From positions 219,305 to 283,304 of the IMG/VR virus record IMGVR_UViG_3300031949_000001: a DNA stretch of 64,000 nucleotides; one strand, written 5' to 3'. The notes beneath the pieces were generated by a model. The model was not told where the DNA came from. It searched no databases and saw only the letters and a program-made list of their open reading frames with translations. The stretch is from a virus (taxonomy: Duplodnaviria > Heunggongvirae > Uroviricota > Caudoviricetes). The translations under genes were made by a program, and so were the position numbers. Shown one piece after another: positions 1,120 to 49,175 of this stretch (position 1 is its first letter; each line of letters opens with the position of its first letter).

Positions 1120-1707
1120 TTAACTAAATGATGCCCCAAATCCTACCCTTGCTGAAGGTGCTATTGTTTGAGTAGTTTTTGCACCGGAAGGGGTGGTTGT
1201 TTTTTCGGGATTACCAGAACGTCCCATTGTACCCATTCCGGAGACGGGTGGTGGGGTGGTTGGACCGCCAGGAACCGATTGTTTTTGCTGTTGGTTAGTA
1301 AGTGCGTCTATTTGTCCCTGCGTGCGCTTTAATTCGGAATCAATTTGTTTATCACCATCAGCTTTAAGCCTCATCGCTGCTTGCTGTTTTTGCTTCCATA
1401 TTTGCATTTGAGGATCGGCGGTTGAAAGATTCAGCGCCCCAGGATTCGATTGTTGAGGCTGAGTTACTGGATTCGGAGCTTGATCTTCTGAGACCGCATT
1501 AATAGCCGACTGTGATCGTTGCATGTCACTATCAAACTTTTGTTGTAGATCGGCTTTCCTCTTAAGCAGCGCTTGTTGCTTGAGTTGTAACGCTTTCAAT
1601 TGGGTATTAGTTACATTGGTTTGACTACCGGTACTCGAAGAGGGAGGGGTTGAACCCATCGCAGCTTGGTCATATTCAGCCAATAGAAACTCTTTAAACG
1701 TCAACAT
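1120..1707 (-). CDS. hypothetical Gln/Pro-rich coiled-coil protein
   Basis: 195-aa ORF with low-complexity Q-rich segments and a TAA stop. Confidence 0.45.
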   Translation of the reverse strand: MLTFKEFLLAEYDQAAMGSTPPSSSTGSQTNVTNTQLKALQLKQQALLKRKADLQQKFDSDMQRSQSAINAVSEDQAPNPVTQPQQSNPGALNLSTADPQMQIWKQKQQAAMRLKADGDKQIDSELKRTQGQIDALTNQQQKQSVPGGPTTPPPVSGMGTMGRSGNPEKTTTPSGAKTTQTIAPSARVGFGASFS

Positions 1708-3053
1708 TAGAAAGTTCCTTGAGCGCGAACGTCTTCGGCTTCCCGACCGGCTTCAGAACGATACTTAGCAAGCAACATTAGCTTCTTTGCTTCGTCTTGA
1801 TCCTTCTTCTTAGTATCGTAGTAACCTTTAGCATCCATGACTTCTTGTTCAGAACGGACCTTGTTATTGGCGATTTGAGCGGCATATTTGGCTTCGTCAG
1901 CATTTGCCTGAGCCTTACGAGCATCTGCTTCAGCTTTACGAGCGTCGATGTCTGCTTTTAACATATCGATAACTTTATCTAGCGCCGATCCTGCCTCACC
2001 TTCACCGCTTGGAGCATCCATCATACCCATATCCATATCACCCATACCCGGCATTGTTCCACCAGCGCCACCTTCGGCGCCTAGATTTGGTAATCCTGCC
2101 TCACCTTCAGCCCCCGGAGCAGCACCAGCTACACCAGCAGCTCCACCCGGAACGCCTCCTGCTGGCTCTTCTGCGTCTTCTGGAATATTTGGCCATTCTG
2201 CATGAAGGATATCAAATCGACCGCGCAAGTTGAAAAGCAATTCAGCTATTTCATTTGGGGTTGAATCAGTTCTATTGAGTTCGGCAGCAACAACATTCTC
2301 AAAATCATCTGCTTGATCTGGACGGACGTATACAACAACAATTTGTCCTGTTTCGTCTTTAAGACCGAAGGGAACTGAATTGCGCTGGAAGTCAAGACGT
2401 TTCTCGGCTGAGTCTAGCTTGGAATGAACATCAGCCGCATTGAATTTATTAGCACCAGGAGCAAACTCCGTTAAGAGTGTACGCATGAAGCTTTCTTTGA
2501 GGTTAAGCACCGAAGATGATTCGTTATGATAACGAATCACAGGAACGTTACCCACAGCTTTTCTGCGACGCAACATCTTTGGTCTTGAAAACAATTGGTT
2601 AGGATATGCAGCAACTGCGCCAGCGCCTACTGATCCACCGGCTGCATCTTCAGAAACTAGTTTACGTTTGGTCTTACTTTCCATAATATTAACCCTCTTT
2701 GGCGGCTTTTTGAATTTCATTGCGTCGAAAGAAAGAACCTTATCTAAAGCGATTTTAGAATCCATAGATGGAGATACAGCATACATCATGTCTCTAATAT
2801 CGGTAAAGGTCAAAGAGCCTAGACAGAAGTATCTAGCCTTTGGAACATTACCTTCGCTTAGCTTTTTCGCAACGTTTTCAAGTTCGGAAATGATACCAAA
2901 CATTCGAATCTTACGTTCTTCGTCTTCTTCGTATTCAGACTTTCTTCTTAATTTTCCGATTAGACGCTCAACGATGTCTAGAACGTGACTAATCTCCATA
3001 GGAGTAATAGTCTTGTCTCGGTCGAGATAGAATTTCAAAGGGCGCATATCCAA
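1707..3053 (-). CDS. hypothetical protein with Gly/Ala-rich linker and charged coiled-coil C-terminus
   Basis: 448-aa ORF. An ATAAATA-type late-promoter core lies about 35 nt upstream of the start. Confidence 0.5.
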   Translation of the reverse strand: MDMRPLKFYLDRDKTITPMEISHVLDIVERLIGKLRRKSEYEEDEERKIRMFGIISELENVAKKLSEGNVPKARYFCLGSLTFTDIRDMMYAVSPSMDSKIALDKVLSFDAMKFKKPPKRVNIMESKTKRKLVSEDAAGGSVGAGAVAAYPNQLFSRPKMLRRRKAVGNVPVIRYHNESSSVLNLKESFMRTLLTEFAPGANKFNAADVHSKLDSAEKRLDFQRNSVPFGLKDETGQIVVVYVRPDQADDFENVVAAELNRTDSTPNEIAELLFNLRGRFDILHAEWPNIPEDAEEPAGGVPGGAAGVAGAAPGAEGEAGLPNLGAEGGAGGTMPGMGDMDMGMMDAPSGEGEAGSALDKVIDMLKADIDARKAEADARKAQANADEAKYAAQIANNKVRSEQEVMDAKGYYDTKKKDQDEAKKLMLLAKYRSEAGREAEDVRAQGTF

Positions 3054-5205: not shown

Positions 5206-6165
5206 TTATAACTGGGTAAATTGTATTGGTGGGAACATTTGTGTTATTAAGCTACGTTGGACGAATAAATCACCTTGGAATGTATACGAAATTACTGCGC
5301 TTTGTAGTGTAGAAATAGATGATGCCAAGATGATTTGAAGCAAATCTTTGTCTGCAAGGGAGAATGGTGTCTTACCAAGAAGAATTACAACGTCATTGAG
5401 TGATATTGGTCCAGTTGTATTAACGCTAACGACATAAAATGGTGTGTTATCCGGAAGACTCAATGTGCTTAAGATTACAGCCATATCTACTGTCTGAACC
5501 TTATACACTAAACCATTAATCGAGATAGTGTCTGTATCACCCCATGGTGTAGAAATCGATGGAAGTAAAGAGAATGGCAAACCCACAGTAGTGAGTGGAG
5601 TAAATGTCGTACCCATTAAAAACTGTAGAACCATTGTAGCTGGATTTACGAGGTCAGGTGTGGCTATGGTTAAGAAGCCATTTGTAGAGATTTGTACAGG
5701 AGGAGCCACTGGTGTGGTAGTAGCAATGTTCCCACCTAATGGAGCCGTTGAACGGGCTATACATTGTGCGATACCGAGTTCTTCGTCATTGAATGTGATC
5801 GTTAAGTTATTTTGATCTACATAGACAATGCTTATAGGATCTTTAGGATGAGGATTTCCCTCGGTGTCAAAGACGTAAACTTTGACGCTAGGGTTGATGC
5901 CCATCCCATGATCGATATTCCAAATTGTGTTTTTTAGTCTTTGTTGAAAGGTGAATAAAGCCTTTCGTTGAACCCAATCTTCCAACCCAGGCTCAATGGG
6001 TGTTGGTTGTCCAGTCTTATAGGTTTGAAGAACTCTCTGGAATTGTAAATCTCCATGGCAAGATTCGGTTATGATACACTTCCCCATAACTTCCAAGCCT
6101 TGAGTATTTTGTGGTATTTGGATGGTGCGTTTGCACCTATCACATTCGTAAACTACAATCGCCAT
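5206..6165 (-). CDS. hypothetical protein with N-terminal zinc ribbon
   Basis: CDRCKR...C..C..H at the N-terminus; 319 aa. Confidence 0.45.
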   Translation of the reverse strand: MAIVVYECDRCKRTIQIPQNTQGLEVMGKCIITESCHGDLQFQRVLQTYKTGQPTPIEPGLEDWVQRKALFTFQQRLKNTIWNIDHGMGINPSVKVYVFDTEGNPHPKDPISIVYVDQNNLTITFNDEELGIAQCIARSTAPLGGNIATTTPVAPPVQISTNGFLTIATPDLVNPATMVLQFLMGTTFTPLTTVGLPFSLLPSISTPWGDTDTISINGLVYKVQTVDMAVILSTLSLPDNTPFYVVSVNTTGPISLNDVVILLGKTPFSLADKDLLQIILASSISTLQSAVISYTFQGDLFVQRSLITQMFPPIQFTQL

Positions 6166-15515: not shown

Positions 15516-16151
15516 TTATATTGTGAAACCGTTTCTTTTTAAGAATCTATTTAAATAATCATGTTTTGGATACATCTCACGCCGTTCTCTGGCATTTTTC
15601 CCCTCATCTAAATTGATCAACAATCCACTCTTAGACAAAGTCTTTAATCCCAACAAATCAATAATTTTTGATTCTGTTTCGAACGCTTTAGCTTCGGATA
15701 GATTTTCAGCAATTTTAATAGAAATTATTTCTTTGTTAGCTTTTAGAATTTTTGTTCGAATCTTTCTATGACCTTCGTTTCGATTAAAATCTAGATATCT
15801 ATCGTCGTTTCCTTTACCTACGTAGAATGGTTGGAATTGGAGATTGAACTTCAGTGCCAGAAAAACGAAACGAATATCATTTTTAACACGGATGGGGTCG
15901 AGCGGGTTACAATGAAGGTAAACATAATAATTATTCGAAGGATTGTTCGCTGGATAAAGACTAGACAAATCCGTAGCGTAAACAGATTCCATCAATGGAT
16001 AAATGTTATCCATATTATGCTTACACCCATCGAAATAAACTTCGTTGTAACCCAAAGAGCGAAGGATTTCTTTTCTTCGTTTTTGGAGTTTCGAAATTAA
16101 CTTCTTGAGGTCCGTTGGATCATCAATATCAACTTCAAAATTTCTTTTCAT
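15516..16151 (-). CDS. GIY-YIG-like homing endonuclease
   Basis: YVYL and FYVGKG motifs plus the R/H/E catalytic residues. The start was trimmed to MKRNF so that it follows the tmRNA terminator. The spacing between the two motifs is atypically long. Confidence 0.45.
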   Translation of the reverse strand: MKRNFEVDIDDPTDLKKLISKLQKRRKEILRSLGYNEVYFDGCKHNMDNIYPLMESVYATDLSSLYPANNPSNNYYVYLHCNPLDPIRVKNDIRFVFLALKFNLQFQPFYVGKGNDDRYLDFNRNEGHRKIRTKILKANKEIISIKIAENLSEAKAFETESKIIDLLGLKTLSKSGLLINLDEGKNARERREMYPKHDYLNRFLKRNGFTI

Positions 16152-16159
16152 AGTTGCAA

Positions 16160-16457
16160 GAAACTCGGTGGAATTGGTTAACAAGGCTCCACCGAAAACC
16201 CCGGTCAAGATTAGGCTGCTACGCCGTAAACATCCTCGACATTGTAAAATGCGTCATTTGCATTTAGTTTTTGCTACTTCACGGTGTTCGCCTACCGAGT
16301 TGCTCTAATAGGTACATTATCATGCCCCCGTCGAATCCTGTCATCCCCATAATTTAAGAGATAACCACCATTGTACATCTTGGTGGAGATGCCGGTCTAC
16401 GATAACCGGGTCCGAAAACACTTTCCACAATTCGAGTTTACAACCATTAACTACACT
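16160..16457 (-). ncRNA. ssrA: two-piece (circularly permuted) tmRNA, ssrA-like
   Basis: The minus strand reads GGGGATGACAGGATTCGACGGGGG (compare E. coli GGGGCUGAUUCUGGAUUCGACGGG). A tag reading frame follows: GCA AAT GAC ... GTA GCA GCC TAA, giving ANDAFYNVEDVYGVAA. Upstream in the gene lies the acceptor piece, GGAAAGUGUUUUCGGAC-CCGGU-loop-ACCGG-CATCUCC-A-CCA, which includes a conserved G3-U70 wobble. Confidence 0.75.
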
Positions 16458-16464
16458 AGTATTT

Positions 16465-16493
16465 ATCGTACCATCAAATCCAAGTCTCGTCAA
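16465..16493 (-). promoter_or_regulatory. sigma70-like promoter for the tmRNA
   Basis: TTGACG, 17-nt spacer, TACGAT on the minus strand just 5' of the acceptor piece. Confidence 0.35.
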
Positions 16494-16699: not shown

Positions 16700-17238
16700 C
16701 GCATTACCCTCTCATAATGAACGAAATAGGTGTCTTTACTCTCGACCCCGTCTAATATCTTAAACTTTTTTGTTAGTTCTGTTATTGGAAAAAATTTATC
16801 ACAATCATAATATCCTTTTACAATTGTGCAATATATATCCTTTACATATGGCAAGAATTCAAGGTAAAGCTTCTCGCCACCAATTACAAACAATGTTTGA
16901 ACCTTATTTTCTACCATGGCTTCTTTTTGGTACATGATGCCTCGAAGCCAACCAATCCGTTTTGCACCATGAGGTTTGAATTCCTCGTTTCTGGAAAGTA
17001 CAAAACTTGTCCTCCCGCGCAATAGAGGTCCATCTTCGCGTAGTCCTCTATTTAGCTTATCTTCATGAATTTCCTCGTAAGTATTGCGCCCCATAACTAC
17101 AATATGACCGTTCGTCAATTCCTTGAATCGCTTCAAGTCTTTCTTATAGAATGGTTGATCCTTCCAAGGGGTCTTGAAATTCTTTGCAAACCCGCCGGCT
17201 TCATCCAAAGCGACCGCAATCGCTATGTTGTTGATCAT
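16696..17238 (-). CDS. frd: dihydrofolate reductase
   Basis: N-terminal IAVALDEAGGF, PW and VVMGRNTYE motifs; 180 aa. Confidence 0.85.
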   Translation of the reverse strand: MINNIAIAVALDEAGGFAKNFKTPWKDQPFYKKDLKRFKELTNGHIVVMGRNTYEEIHEDKLNRGLREDGPLLRGRTSFVLSRNEEFKPHGAKRIGWLRGIMYQKEAMVENKVQTLFVIGGEKLYLEFLPYVKDIYCTIVKGYYDCDKFFPITELTKKFKILDGVESKDTYFVHYERVMR

Positions 17239-17756
17239 TTGGTGCCTTTCGTCTTAGCCCAATTTAAATTAAGTTCTTCCAAATATTCCGTATCAAACTC
17301 TAAATCGAAATCAACTTCCGGCAACTTGCTCACATCCAGATCACCAATATCATATGACAAGGTTATGTGCGTCTCATACTTATCGTAATCAAACGTAGCA
17401 CCATGTTCTTTCATCAATTCTTCATGTCGCTTAACTAGAGCGGGGCACTTGAACTTTAAAACTAAACAGTTTGCTTTTTCCTCGTTTGGATCTTCCGGTG
17501 TTGTTTTCCACACCGTAAATCCTACCGTCTTGCCAACATAAGGGACATCTAGTTTACCAGCAGGTTTGTAATTTGGTAAGTGCTTTCTGCTGTAGAGAAT
17601 GGTCGTATGAAGTTTATCTGCCTTGACCGGGAGTGGAATCTTGTTATCTTCCATGTAGTCAGCCAGATTTTCTTTTGTTTCTTGGCTAGGTTTTACACCT
17701 GCGTAGATGCCTCGAACTGTTTTTCTTTTTTCTTCAAGGATTTCTTTTATTTTCAT
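17235..17756 (-). CDS. 2H phosphoesterase (LigT/Acb1-like)
   Basis: Two H-x-T/S-x motifs (LHTTIL and THITLS) about 70 residues apart; 173 aa. Confidence 0.6.
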   Translation of the reverse strand: MKIKEILEEKRKTVRGIYAGVKPSQETKENLADYMEDNKIPLPVKADKLHTTILYSRKHLPNYKPAGKLDVPYVGKTVGFTVWKTTPEDPNEEKANCLVLKFKCPALVKRHEELMKEHGATFDYDKYETHITLSYDIGDLDVSKLPEVDFDLEFDTEYLEELNLNWAKTKGTK

Positions 17757-33936: not shown

Positions 33937-34039
33937 TGGAGCTTCTGGTGAGAATCGAACTCACACACTAACATTGTTATGAACACTCGTTAAAAATATT
34001 CATAGGCAATGTCAGAGGCTACCACTACATCACAGAAGC
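33937..34039 (-). other. tRNA-like element (T-arm + 7-bp acceptor stem + encoded CCA) of atypical length
   Basis: GCTTCTG pairs with CAGAAGC (7/7). T-arm GTGAG-TTCGATT-CTCAC, discriminator T, CCA. A D-loop-like AGTGGTAG is present. There are 68 nt between the acceptor and the T-arm where 41 are expected, so no canonical cloverleaf can be drawn. Confidence 0.35.
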
Positions 34040-49099: not shown

Positions 49100-49175
49100 T
49101 GGCGCGCAGTGTGGGAATCGGACCCACGACAATCGGTTTTAGAGACCGCTCCTCTGACCACTAAGGTAACTGCGC
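49100..49175 (-). tRNA. tRNA with CUA anticodon (amber suppressor; Trp-like anticodon arm)
   Basis: The minus strand reads GCGCAGT-TA-CCTT-AGTGGTCA-GAGG-A-GCGGT-CTCTAAA-ACCGA-TTGTC-GTGGG-TCCGATT-CCCAC-ACTGCGC-G-CCA. It is 76 nt with 7/7 acceptor pairs, U33, A37, anticodon positions 34-36 = CUA, and discriminator G73. The anticodon arm is nearly identical to E. coli tRNA-Trp (CCGGUCUCCAAAACCGG). Confidence 0.75.

Follow-up and report, generated by a model that had tools for sequence, protein, structure and literature searches.

A phage-encoded, circularly permuted tmRNA gene with a variant T-loop beside a GIY-YIG endonuclease gene

The minus strand of a 64,000-nucleotide stretch of viral DNA (IMG/VR record IMGVR_UViG_3300031949_000001, positions 219,305 to 283,304; the whole stretch is called the window here) carries a gene for transfer-messenger RNA (tmRNA, ssrA) in which the acceptor piece precedes the coding piece. 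A gene for a GIY-YIG endonuclease begins 15 nt past it and separates it from a gene for a ClpP-like serine protease (Table 1). An independent gene caller left the tmRNA interval empty and started the next gene at the ATG at 16151. A protein-coding reading of the interval was considered and rejected, the short open reading frames (ORFs) there (50 aa at 16341-16493, and 42 aa on the plus strand) being accounted for by the RNA gene. An earlier note, written from the sequence alone, had proposed a phage-encoded, circularly permuted two-piece tmRNA at this place, and the proposal is borne out by an Rfam covariance model (RF04321), by covariation, by synteny with a related viral contig (L006) and by an ARAGORN call after a loop swap.

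A permuted tmRNA gene and its conservation

RF04321 (tmRNA_permuted) matched the interval over model positions 1-213 of 213 with 97.1 bits against a gathering threshold of 47 (E = 1.3e-17). The alpha_tmRNA family RF01849 also passed its gathering threshold, marginally (52.3 bits against 50), and because the margin is so small alpha-lineage descent of the window tmRNA is not established.

The sequence elements listed in the earlier note all lie on the minus strand where it had placed them. From 16417 to 16381 the acceptor piece reads UUUCGGAC-CCGGU-UAUCGUAG-ACCGG-CAUCUCC-ACCA, with UUUCGGAC (16417-16410) just 5' of the T-arm and with ACCA (16384-16381), the discriminator A and an encoded 3' CCA, right after the acceptor strand. 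This strand, CAUCUCC (16391-16385), pairs 7/7 with GGGGAUG (16348-16342), including the G3·U wobble of alanine identity, as had been claimed. The coding piece opens with GGGGAUGACAGGAUUCGACGGGGG (16348-16325). The gene order is permuted, also as claimed: the CCA end at 16381 lies upstream of the GGGG start at 16348, with a 32-nt spacer between the two pieces. The D-loop analogue GGAUUCGAC (16338-16330; expected form GGNUUCGAC) is joined to the acceptor stem by a 3-nt linker, ACA. Strands of P2 are found in both pieces, GGUUG (16445-16441) and GUUUUCG (16419-16413) in the acceptor piece and CGGGGGC (16330-16324) and CAACU (16302-16298) in the coding piece, and the distal helix GGUUG/CAACU pairs in the RF04321 alignment. 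Of the shared fold that had been predicted, the acceptor stem, the T-arm and the proximal and distal P2 helices form, and the middle P2 helix does not form as modelled. A hairpin CGGU…ACCG (16297-16282) corresponds to the one that the model has upstream of the resume codon. When the two pieces were cofolded without constraints, the acceptor and T stems came out, and the rest of the acceptor piece was paired with the tag region; this fold was not trusted, and comparative evidence took its place.

Sixty-two distinct permuted tmRNA cores from viral contigs were aligned and given a consensus fold. The T-stem shows compensatory change at all five pairs and the acceptor stem at its two variable pairs, with no pair broken; G3·U is invariant (62/62), and covariation is also seen in the proximal P2 helix of 7 bp that adjoins the T-arm. 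L006 (comparison loci are designated by L and a number), an 85-kb viral contig, is syntenic with the window, with homologues of the Acb1, DHFR, ClpP-like protease and primase genes. Its flanking proteins are only 40-51% identical to those of the window, yet its tmRNA is intact: the acceptor, T-stem and post-tag stems differ in sequence and are still complementary, and the tag, ANDSFYGETRLAA, is related. This points to purifying selection on the RNA gene rather than decay.

VAA tag endings are known from Caulobacter. In the window the resume codon GCA (16261-16259) stands at nt 88 of this piece, in agreement with the earlier estimate of about 87 nt, and opens, within the coding piece, the tag ANDAFYNVEDVYGVAA, which ends at a UAA stop (16213-16211). 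The tag had been called unusual, a description that does not hold, as it belongs to the AND…(L/V)AA family of its relatives, such as ANDAFFGDYRLAA and ANDAYFGEERLAA.

The tag is followed by a conserved element made of GGGG (16202-16199), the stem strand CGGUGGA (16194-16188), the loop GCCUUGUUAACCAAU (16187-16173) and the stem strand UCCACCG (16172-16166). It recurs after the tag stop in 18 distinct phage permuted tmRNAs with a shared layout, namely a G(G/A)GG run, a stem, a near-invariant loop (N)CCUUGUUA(A/C)CCAAU and the complementary stem. As a MAFFT alignment broke the stem register and was unsuited, matched flanks were compared with mismatched ones: the stems differ in all 18, and matched flanks pair over 6.3 bp on average versus 3.3 bp for mismatched flanks. 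Since the GGGG can pair with CCUU of the loop, the element probably forms the final pseudoknot in the coding piece. The hairpin that the earlier note had seen after the tag, together with a U-rich tract, is therefore present as a conserved part of the tmRNA, and its role as a terminator is refuted. Many relatives have a separate textbook terminator after this element, and the window has none.

Table 1. Position and basis of the features at the tmRNA locus (positions in the window).
Feature	Position	Strand	Basis
Permuted tmRNA gene, whole	16445-16166	-	Rfam covariance models
Acceptor piece	16381..16445	-	RF04321 alignment, coordinates, 7/7 pairing, covariation in 62 sequences
Coding piece	16166..16348	-	RF04321 alignment, verified anatomy, covariation, ARAGORN call after loop swap
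Intervening segment between CCA and coding-piece 5' G, 32 nt	16349..16380	-	Coordinates; excision inferred
Non-canonical T-arm, 5-bp stem CCGGU/ACCGG	16392..16409	-	Verified sequence and comparison with other tmRNAs
Tag reading frame	16211..16261	-	Translation, model alignment at resume and stop positions, ARAGORN after loop swap
Conserved post-tag element	16166..16202	-	Flank-pairing comparison across 18 phage tmRNAs
Candidate sigma-70-like promoter, TTGACG-17 nt-TACGAT with upstream TG	16465..16493	-	Weak call
GIY-YIG endonuclease gene, 211 aa, 636 bp	15516..16151	-	Pfam PF22945, independent gene call
ClpP-like serine protease gene, 208 aa	14874..15500	-	Pfam, PHROG, linkage in 8 fetched loci

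A tmRNA class with an eight-nucleotide T-loop

The T-loop forms the tRNA-like elbow and is one of the features by which RNase P, TrmA/TruB and SmpB recognise the RNA. In the window tmRNA it is the truly unusual feature, which the earlier note had mentioned only in passing: it has 8 nt, UAUCGUAG (16404-16397), versus the canonical 7-nt UUCGANU/UUCRANY, and its stem is closed by a U-A pair, versus the canonical G-C. ARAGORN gave no tmRNA on the native window, the relaxed threshold included. When the loop alone was swapped to UUCGAAU, it called a permuted tmRNA with the tag ANDAFYNVEDVYGVAA*, and the identical swap restored detection in a relative, L051. The ARAGORN check proposed earlier was thus negative for the native sequence and positive once the T-loop was canonical. 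Over all loci compared, ARAGORN called 0/54 genes with the 8-nt loop versus 106/151 canonical ones. Because the swap restores the call, we regard its silence as an artefact of the loop and not as evidence against the gene. A survey that used this tool reported ssrA in 2.3% of phage genomes (PMC9004378); since such surveys miss the 8-nt-loop class, counts of ssrA in phages are underestimated.

Relatives were sought with the pattern GGAC-N5-TATCGTA-N6-C-NN-CTCCACCA. It matched 51 viral contigs, with one-piece and two-piece tmRNAs both represented, and four contigs among one genome each of 185,579 bacterial and archaeal species, about two of them real. Two of these four, L086 and L087, were rejected as chance matches, with T-stems paired at 1/5 and 4/5 positions and no Rfam tmRNA. 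L089 carries phage genes on its contig. L088, a 116-kb contig of a metagenome-assembled genome labelled uncultured Bacilli, is ambiguous between phage and chromosome; its tmRNA is short and one-piece with an 8-nt T-loop, and beside this tmRNA and a tRNA it has a ROOL RNA (1253-1846, minus strand, 325 bits).

The viral variant genes score 59-104 bits with RF00023 when one-piece and 53-115 bits with RF04321 when permuted. Some of the permuted ones also score as alpha-like or beta-like, and beta_tmRNA is the best model for two further members, L062 and L072 (about 105-107 bits); together with the marginal RF01849 score of the window, this makes lineage assignment of phage tmRNA genes unreliable. 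Many variant genes lie in tRNA arrays, and the array in L018 that holds an 8-nt-loop tmRNA also has a group I intron (5544-5735, minus strand).

The class comprises 22 distinct T-arm/acceptor sequences, in which the stem is always fully paired and the stems co-vary. A scan for the canonical T-loop gave at least 120 matches, a lower bound that yields no frequency for the variant. The closing pair is C-G in 25/26 variant genes and U-A in the window, versus G-C in 69/71 canonical genes. Between the acceptor stem and the GG of the D-loop analogue, 25/26 variant genes have a linker of 3 nt, versus 10/71 canonical genes (p = 4e-14), and GGA stands in place of GGU in 23/26 versus 11/71 (p = 4e-11), both values being uncorrected for phylogeny. 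The variant hairpin occurred 54 times in tmRNA context and never elsewhere in the same loci, and 114/130 co-resident phage tRNAs have ordinary 7-nt UUCG or UUCA loops. The linked changes of D-loop linker and closing pair look like structural compensation, implying selection on the RNA. Conceivably, the T-stem gains a sixth pair from the two end bases of the loop (U·U, U·G or U-A), which would leave an AUCGUA hexaloop; combined with the shorter D-linker, this would move the elbow by one base pair. From these sequences, the window gene falls in a subgroup of phage-borne tmRNAs whose elbow is remodelled (8-nt T-loop, non-G-C closing pair, 3-nt linker).

BLAST of two full-length variant tmRNAs and a concatenated T-arm against deposited phages found no member of this class, and the searchable literature, incomplete in coverage, does not mention it. 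The concatenated T-arm query did retrieve a T-arm-like sequence from crAss-like phages, which we excluded because it has no CCA and no Rfam tmRNA. In L210 (NC_055890.1, crAss-like phage cr56_1) this sequence, at 2501-2532, reads GGAC-GGGGC-UAUCGUAU-GCCCC-UAGCUCC followed by ACU, not ACCA. An annotated 'endonuclease' coding sequence overlaps it on the other strand, RAGATH-20 and RAGATH-9 RNAs lie just upstream, and the same T-arm-like sequence is present in cr109_1, cr113_1 and MT835588. Possibly this is a tmRNA-like gene that was disrupted or has diverged strongly.

Certain members of the class have unusual tags. Nine one-piece 8-nt-loop genes (L040, L044, L048, L052, L058, L059, L068, L071 and L085), in loci of low GC content (29-39%), encode long, conserved acidic tags of about 33 aa, such as AEDNTSDLLAEAEYIFNNADEFLAGVEDYALAA. 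In the permuted genes L043, L057/L083 and L064 the tag frame runs to about 30 aa around a conserved …KFSAR… core; it ends in FAV (L057, L064) or ALV (L043), not LAA or VAA, a departure from the standard ClpX recognition end.

The silence of ARAGORN and the non-canonical loop would be expected of a decaying, functionless ssrA fragment derived from a host, as would the weak promoter support and the missing terminator described below, and prophages can carry ssrA fragments (PMC9004378). We consider this pseudogene explanation very improbable. All parts of the window gene are present and correctly paired, compensatory changes separate it from the syntenic L006 and from 60 other genes, and the apparent defect is a conserved loop common to the 22 distinct sequences with co-varying stems. 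The variant is moreover essentially absent from cellular genomes, which makes recent capture from a host impossible.

The elbow is the SmpB-binding region in SmpB-tmRNA structures. The changes in the window tmRNA are concentrated there, in the T-loop and the D-loop linker, and the variant loop is specific to tmRNA, being absent from the co-resident phage tRNAs. Both facts would suit an RNA that acts mainly as a decoy or competitor, its tRNA-like domain binding host SmpB or the ribosome and thereby shutting down or redirecting host trans-translation. As cited in PMC4131195, Mao et al. (2009) are the source for inhibition by the DS6A element, a bare tRNA-like domain that, according to the accounts in PMC4131195 and PMC11915505, strongly inhibits tmRNA, perhaps by titrating SmpB. 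A pure decoy would need neither a tag nor the conserved structural elements around it, however, and the complete in-frame tag, the conserved resume context UAAAUGCA and the hydrophobic …AA end are kept in deeply diverged relatives. We therefore think a decoy role unlikely, if less so than decay.

Endonuclease and protease genes beside the tmRNA

The GIY-YIG protein matches Pfam PF22945 marginally (28.2 bits against a cut-off of 27), and the motifs YYVY…PFYVGKG…R…N…E are conserved in four homologues. In L006 a terminator, a TTGACT-17-TATAAT promoter and the ClpP-like gene come after the tmRNA, in that order, with no GIY-YIG gene; because the gene is absent from this syntenic contig, the window copy looks inserted. 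Loci of its relatives were fetched by homology to the protein alone. A permuted tmRNA is directly adjacent in 12/17 loci of full-length relatives, on either side, versus 0/20 of the distant relatives that share only the catalytic domain (p = 3.3e-6, uncorrected for phylogeny). In these 12 the tmRNA usually lies downstream of the endonuclease gene; two have the arrangement of the window, and one has the tmRNA on the opposite strand. Counted from the tmRNA side, a GIY-YIG gene stands beside the 8-nt-class gene in 5/53 fetched loci (6/54 with the window) and in 0/150 canonical-class loci, and in three other 8-nt-class phages the homologue is directly upstream of the tmRNA. One distant GIY-YIG relative, in L255, has a group I intron beside it (835-1108).

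Nine of the 12 endonuclease-adjacent tmRNAs have non-canonical T-loops of several unrelated sequences, and three are canonical-looking. The loops found beside GIY-YIG genes are UAUCGUAU, GGCAGUA/GGCGGUA with a matching change of the D-loop analogue to AGUAUCGAU, GUGACUG and UGAGAUU. In L213, L220, L224, L225 and L229, whose tmRNAs score 64-117 bits with RF04321, they are GGCGGUA, GGCAGUA and GGCAGUG with the D-loop analogue AGUAUCGAU or AGGAUCGAC, as well as GUGACUG and UGAGAUU. The remodelled elbow thus appears in several independent versions. The GIY-YIG protein is probably a free-standing homing endonuclease that inserted here, with the tmRNA gene as its target.

This neighbourhood raises the question whether the variant T-arm is due mainly to the endonuclease, the loops being cleavage-resistant or co-converted alleles and not adaptations of the tmRNA. 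Such an origin would rival only the reason for the loop change and is compatible with a functional tmRNA gene. The adjacency counts, the non-canonical loops in those nine tmRNAs and in the window, the presence or absence of the endonuclease between the window and L006, and the recurrence of the same loop in one-piece, alpha-like permuted and beta-like permuted genes all speak for it. On the other hand, the flanks fetched for most genes of the 8-nt class hold no endonuclease, L006 has the variant loop yet lacks the endonuclease, the coordinated linker and closing-pair changes suggest structural compensation, and the phage tmRNAs available for comparison are a set biased by T-loop. We rate an endonuclease origin as less likely than not by a wide margin, though well ahead of the decoy and pseudogene explanations. 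A tie between T-arm variation and cleavage resistance or co-conversion stays hypothetical, because most members of the class have no endonuclease in the flanks fetched.

The second neighbour, the ClpP-like protease, matches Pfam PF00574 (CLP_protease) at 57 bits against 20.2. Its match to PHROG 1827 ('ATP-dependent protease'; 6e-55) is much stronger than that to any family of head-maturation proteases, and its serine motif is kept in an alignment with E. coli ClpP. A ClpP-like gene lies 0.4-3 kb downstream of a permuted tmRNA, on the same strand, in eight fetched loci of both loop classes (L006, L054/L074, L090, L141, L165, L171 and L193) and in the window. This linkage suggests a possible phage module of tag plus protease.

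Joining these observations, we tentatively propose an unrecognised, essentially phage-restricted tmRNA class with a rebuilt elbow that resides in a mobile 'tag-and-degrade' module. Its members, one-piece and two-piece and invisible to ARAGORN, would share the 8-nt UAUCGUAK T-loop, with the 53:61 closing pair flipped and the D-linker shorter by 1 nt; the module would move with a dedicated tmRNA-targeting GIY-YIG endonuclease and often be coupled to a ClpP-like protease; and the odd diversity of T-loops near endonucleases would be the record of a contest between endonuclease and target within a functional RNA. As a whole this picture is doubtful, with the chances clearly against it in this complete form.

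Function, phage context and known systems

The window is phage DNA, since it encodes a DnaB-type helicase, both ribonucleotide reductase subunits, two RNA ligase-type proteins, DHFR and Acb1, a homologue of a phosphodiesterase directed against the cyclic-oligonucleotide-based antiphage signalling system (CBASS), and since its nearest isolates are jumbo myophages; a DNA primase and an NAD-dependent ligase are also encoded, along with the ClpP-like protease. By helicase, at ~34% identity, these isolates are RsoM2USA, Atu_ph07, Phosso, XacN1 and PA5oct, jumbo myophages of Proteobacteria. BLAST with the tmRNA region and its 14-kb surroundings found no nucleotide match among 50,697 deposited phages. 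The contig is also found, at 123 kb, in the Logan assembly of the public run SRR9005073, with further copies on contigs of 0.2-1 Mb. The source of the window is a large, uncultured, lytic-type phage.

Additional observations were made in the window. Two genes upstream of the tmRNA stands the Acb1 gene (17235-17756, minus strand; Pfam PF23474, 5.5e-38), which is kept in L006 at 51% identity. A tRNA with a CUA anticodon, an amber suppressor (49100-49175, minus strand; Rfam tRNA 61 bits), was labelled Pyl by ARAGORN, and TAG is the rarest stop among the long ORFs (8/58). Genome-wide recoding of TAG was rejected, as the gain in ORF coverage with TAG as a sense codon was smaller than that with the TGA or TAA controls. 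One may speculate that read-through by the amber suppressor could raise the demand for ribosome rescue, a possible link to the tmRNA. Next to tRNA-Gly(UCC), a 100-nt tRNA-like gene (33940-34039, minus strand; Rfam tRNA 39 bits) has a very long, extended anticodon arm. ARAGORN calls it only if introns are permitted, and then reports tRNA-Ile(AAU) with an insert of 33 nt; the gene may encode a tRNA with an intron or another tRNA-like RNA.

With regard to function, we envisage one precursor transcript that probably continues into the downstream genes. The 32-nt spacer would be lost through cuts made by tRNA end-processing enzymes behind the encoded CCA and, together with RNase P, ahead of the GGGG, as expected from the two-piece processing pathway described in PMC11915505. 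The resulting acceptor piece of ~65 nt and coding piece of ~183 nt would be held together by the 7-bp acceptor stem and the P2 helices. Host alanyl-tRNA synthetase would charge the RNA with alanine via G3·U, and host SmpB and EF-Tu would bring it to ribosomes stalled on broken mRNAs, where translation would resume at GCA and append ANDAFYNVEDVYGVAA, its C-terminal VAA marking the product for Clp-type proteolysis. The phage would benefit by keeping ribosomes free while host mRNA is destroyed. A tmRNA-gene-associated GIY-YIG endonuclease would have inserted directly downstream, between the tmRNA and ClpP-like genes.

Several points weigh against this functional reading. The middle P2 helix has three non-canonical pairs in the Rfam alignment, with an alternative register, AUUGU/AUAAU, spotted by eye only, and for the pseudoknot expected 5' of the resume codon no second pairing could be made out by eye. 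The T-loop departs from the near-universal 7-nt UUCRANY, and this variant could alter or impair tmRNA function. The RNA must rely on host SmpB, since a search whose positive control worked found no SmpB in the window or in the variant-class loci. The sigma70-like promoter of the earlier note does exist as a sequence (16493-16465), with a 9/12 match, but it lacks statistical support and is indistinguishable from chance, the 900-nt region holding three promoter-like sites versus 2.3 expected from shuffles. The terminator scan yielded nothing in the region that satisfied its criteria. The association statistics ignore phylogeny, and the loci were ascertained by sequence patterns. Finally, gene identity, architecture, covariation, distribution and linkages are matters of observation, and we infer that the RNA is expressed, processed, charged and used for tagging, as well as what the altered elbow is for. 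Weighing these points, we put the probability that the locus is a functional, phage-encoded, circularly permuted ssrA gene, as regards gene identity and basic function judged on sequence grounds, at about 0.87.

Phage two-piece tmRNAs are an already published class (PMC9004378), and what differs here is the elbow variant and the endonuclease neighbour. Among 133 unique tmRNA structures in isolate phage genomes, 53 were two-piece, 50 of these marine or aquatic (Buchholz et al., 2022, PMC9004378), and a 2025 tmRNA database holds 79 phage sequences (PMC11915505). Like the OM43 phage Melnitz, the pelagimyophages HTVC008M and Mosig and the cyanophages (PMC9004378), the phage described here combines a permuted ssrA with a large lytic myophage-type genome, and it shares their alpha-like architecture and AND-type tag. 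Unlike theirs, its T-loop has 8 nt and is invisible to ARAGORN, the tool of that survey; its tmRNA is flanked by GIY-YIG and ClpP-like genes; an Rfam scan of the window found no glutamine riboswitch at threshold; nucleotide matches to deposited phages are absent; and the phage is nearest to jumbo myophages of Proteobacteria.

The prototype of the alphaproteobacterial two-piece tmRNA is that of Caulobacter crescentus (Keiler, Shapiro and Williams, 2000, as cited in PMC9004378). The window gene resembles this type (RF01849) in its acceptor-spacer-coding order, its G3·U and a tag ending in VAA, and its post-tag GGGG…stem-loop element resembles that of the RF01849 consensus, whereas it differs in being phage-borne and in its 8-nt T-loop, U-A closing pair and 3-nt D-linker. 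With the one-piece tmRNAs of mycobacteriophages and phage G and with the DS6A element (PMC4131195) it shares a phage-borne ssrA and a possible manipulation of trans-translation; those genes are in standard order or truncated, whereas the window gene is permuted and has a full tag. Intron-containing tmRNA genes have a group I intron in the TψC loop, often with a homing endonuclease (PMC11915505). There, too, a selfish endonuclease is tied to a tmRNA gene and the T-loop region varies, but in the window the endonuclease is free-standing alongside, no intron is present and the T-loop is altered but uninterrupted.

SegB of phage T4 is a free-standing GIY-YIG homing endonuclease encoded in the T4 tRNA gene cluster. 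The window endonuclease is likewise a free-standing GIY-YIG protein, whose gene stands next to small structured-RNA genes in a T4-like genome and is polymorphic between relatives. Unlike SegB, its partner gene is a tmRNA, and the likeness is one of gene arrangement.

By itself, a two-piece phage tmRNA is one more example of a described class. The T-loop, by contrast, is among the most conserved features of tRNA-like molecules, and a natural, co-varying alternative elbow offers a ready test case for the role of the elbow in charging, SmpB binding and ribosome entry. Annotation pipelines should add Rfam models for phage tmRNA genes. The recurrent linkage of tmRNA and ClpP-like genes suggests that some phages supply both the degradation tag and the protease. 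If a family of homing endonucleases is indeed tied to tmRNA genes, it would explain the spread of ssrA modules among unrelated phages and would newly illustrate how pressure from a selfish element can shape a structured RNA.

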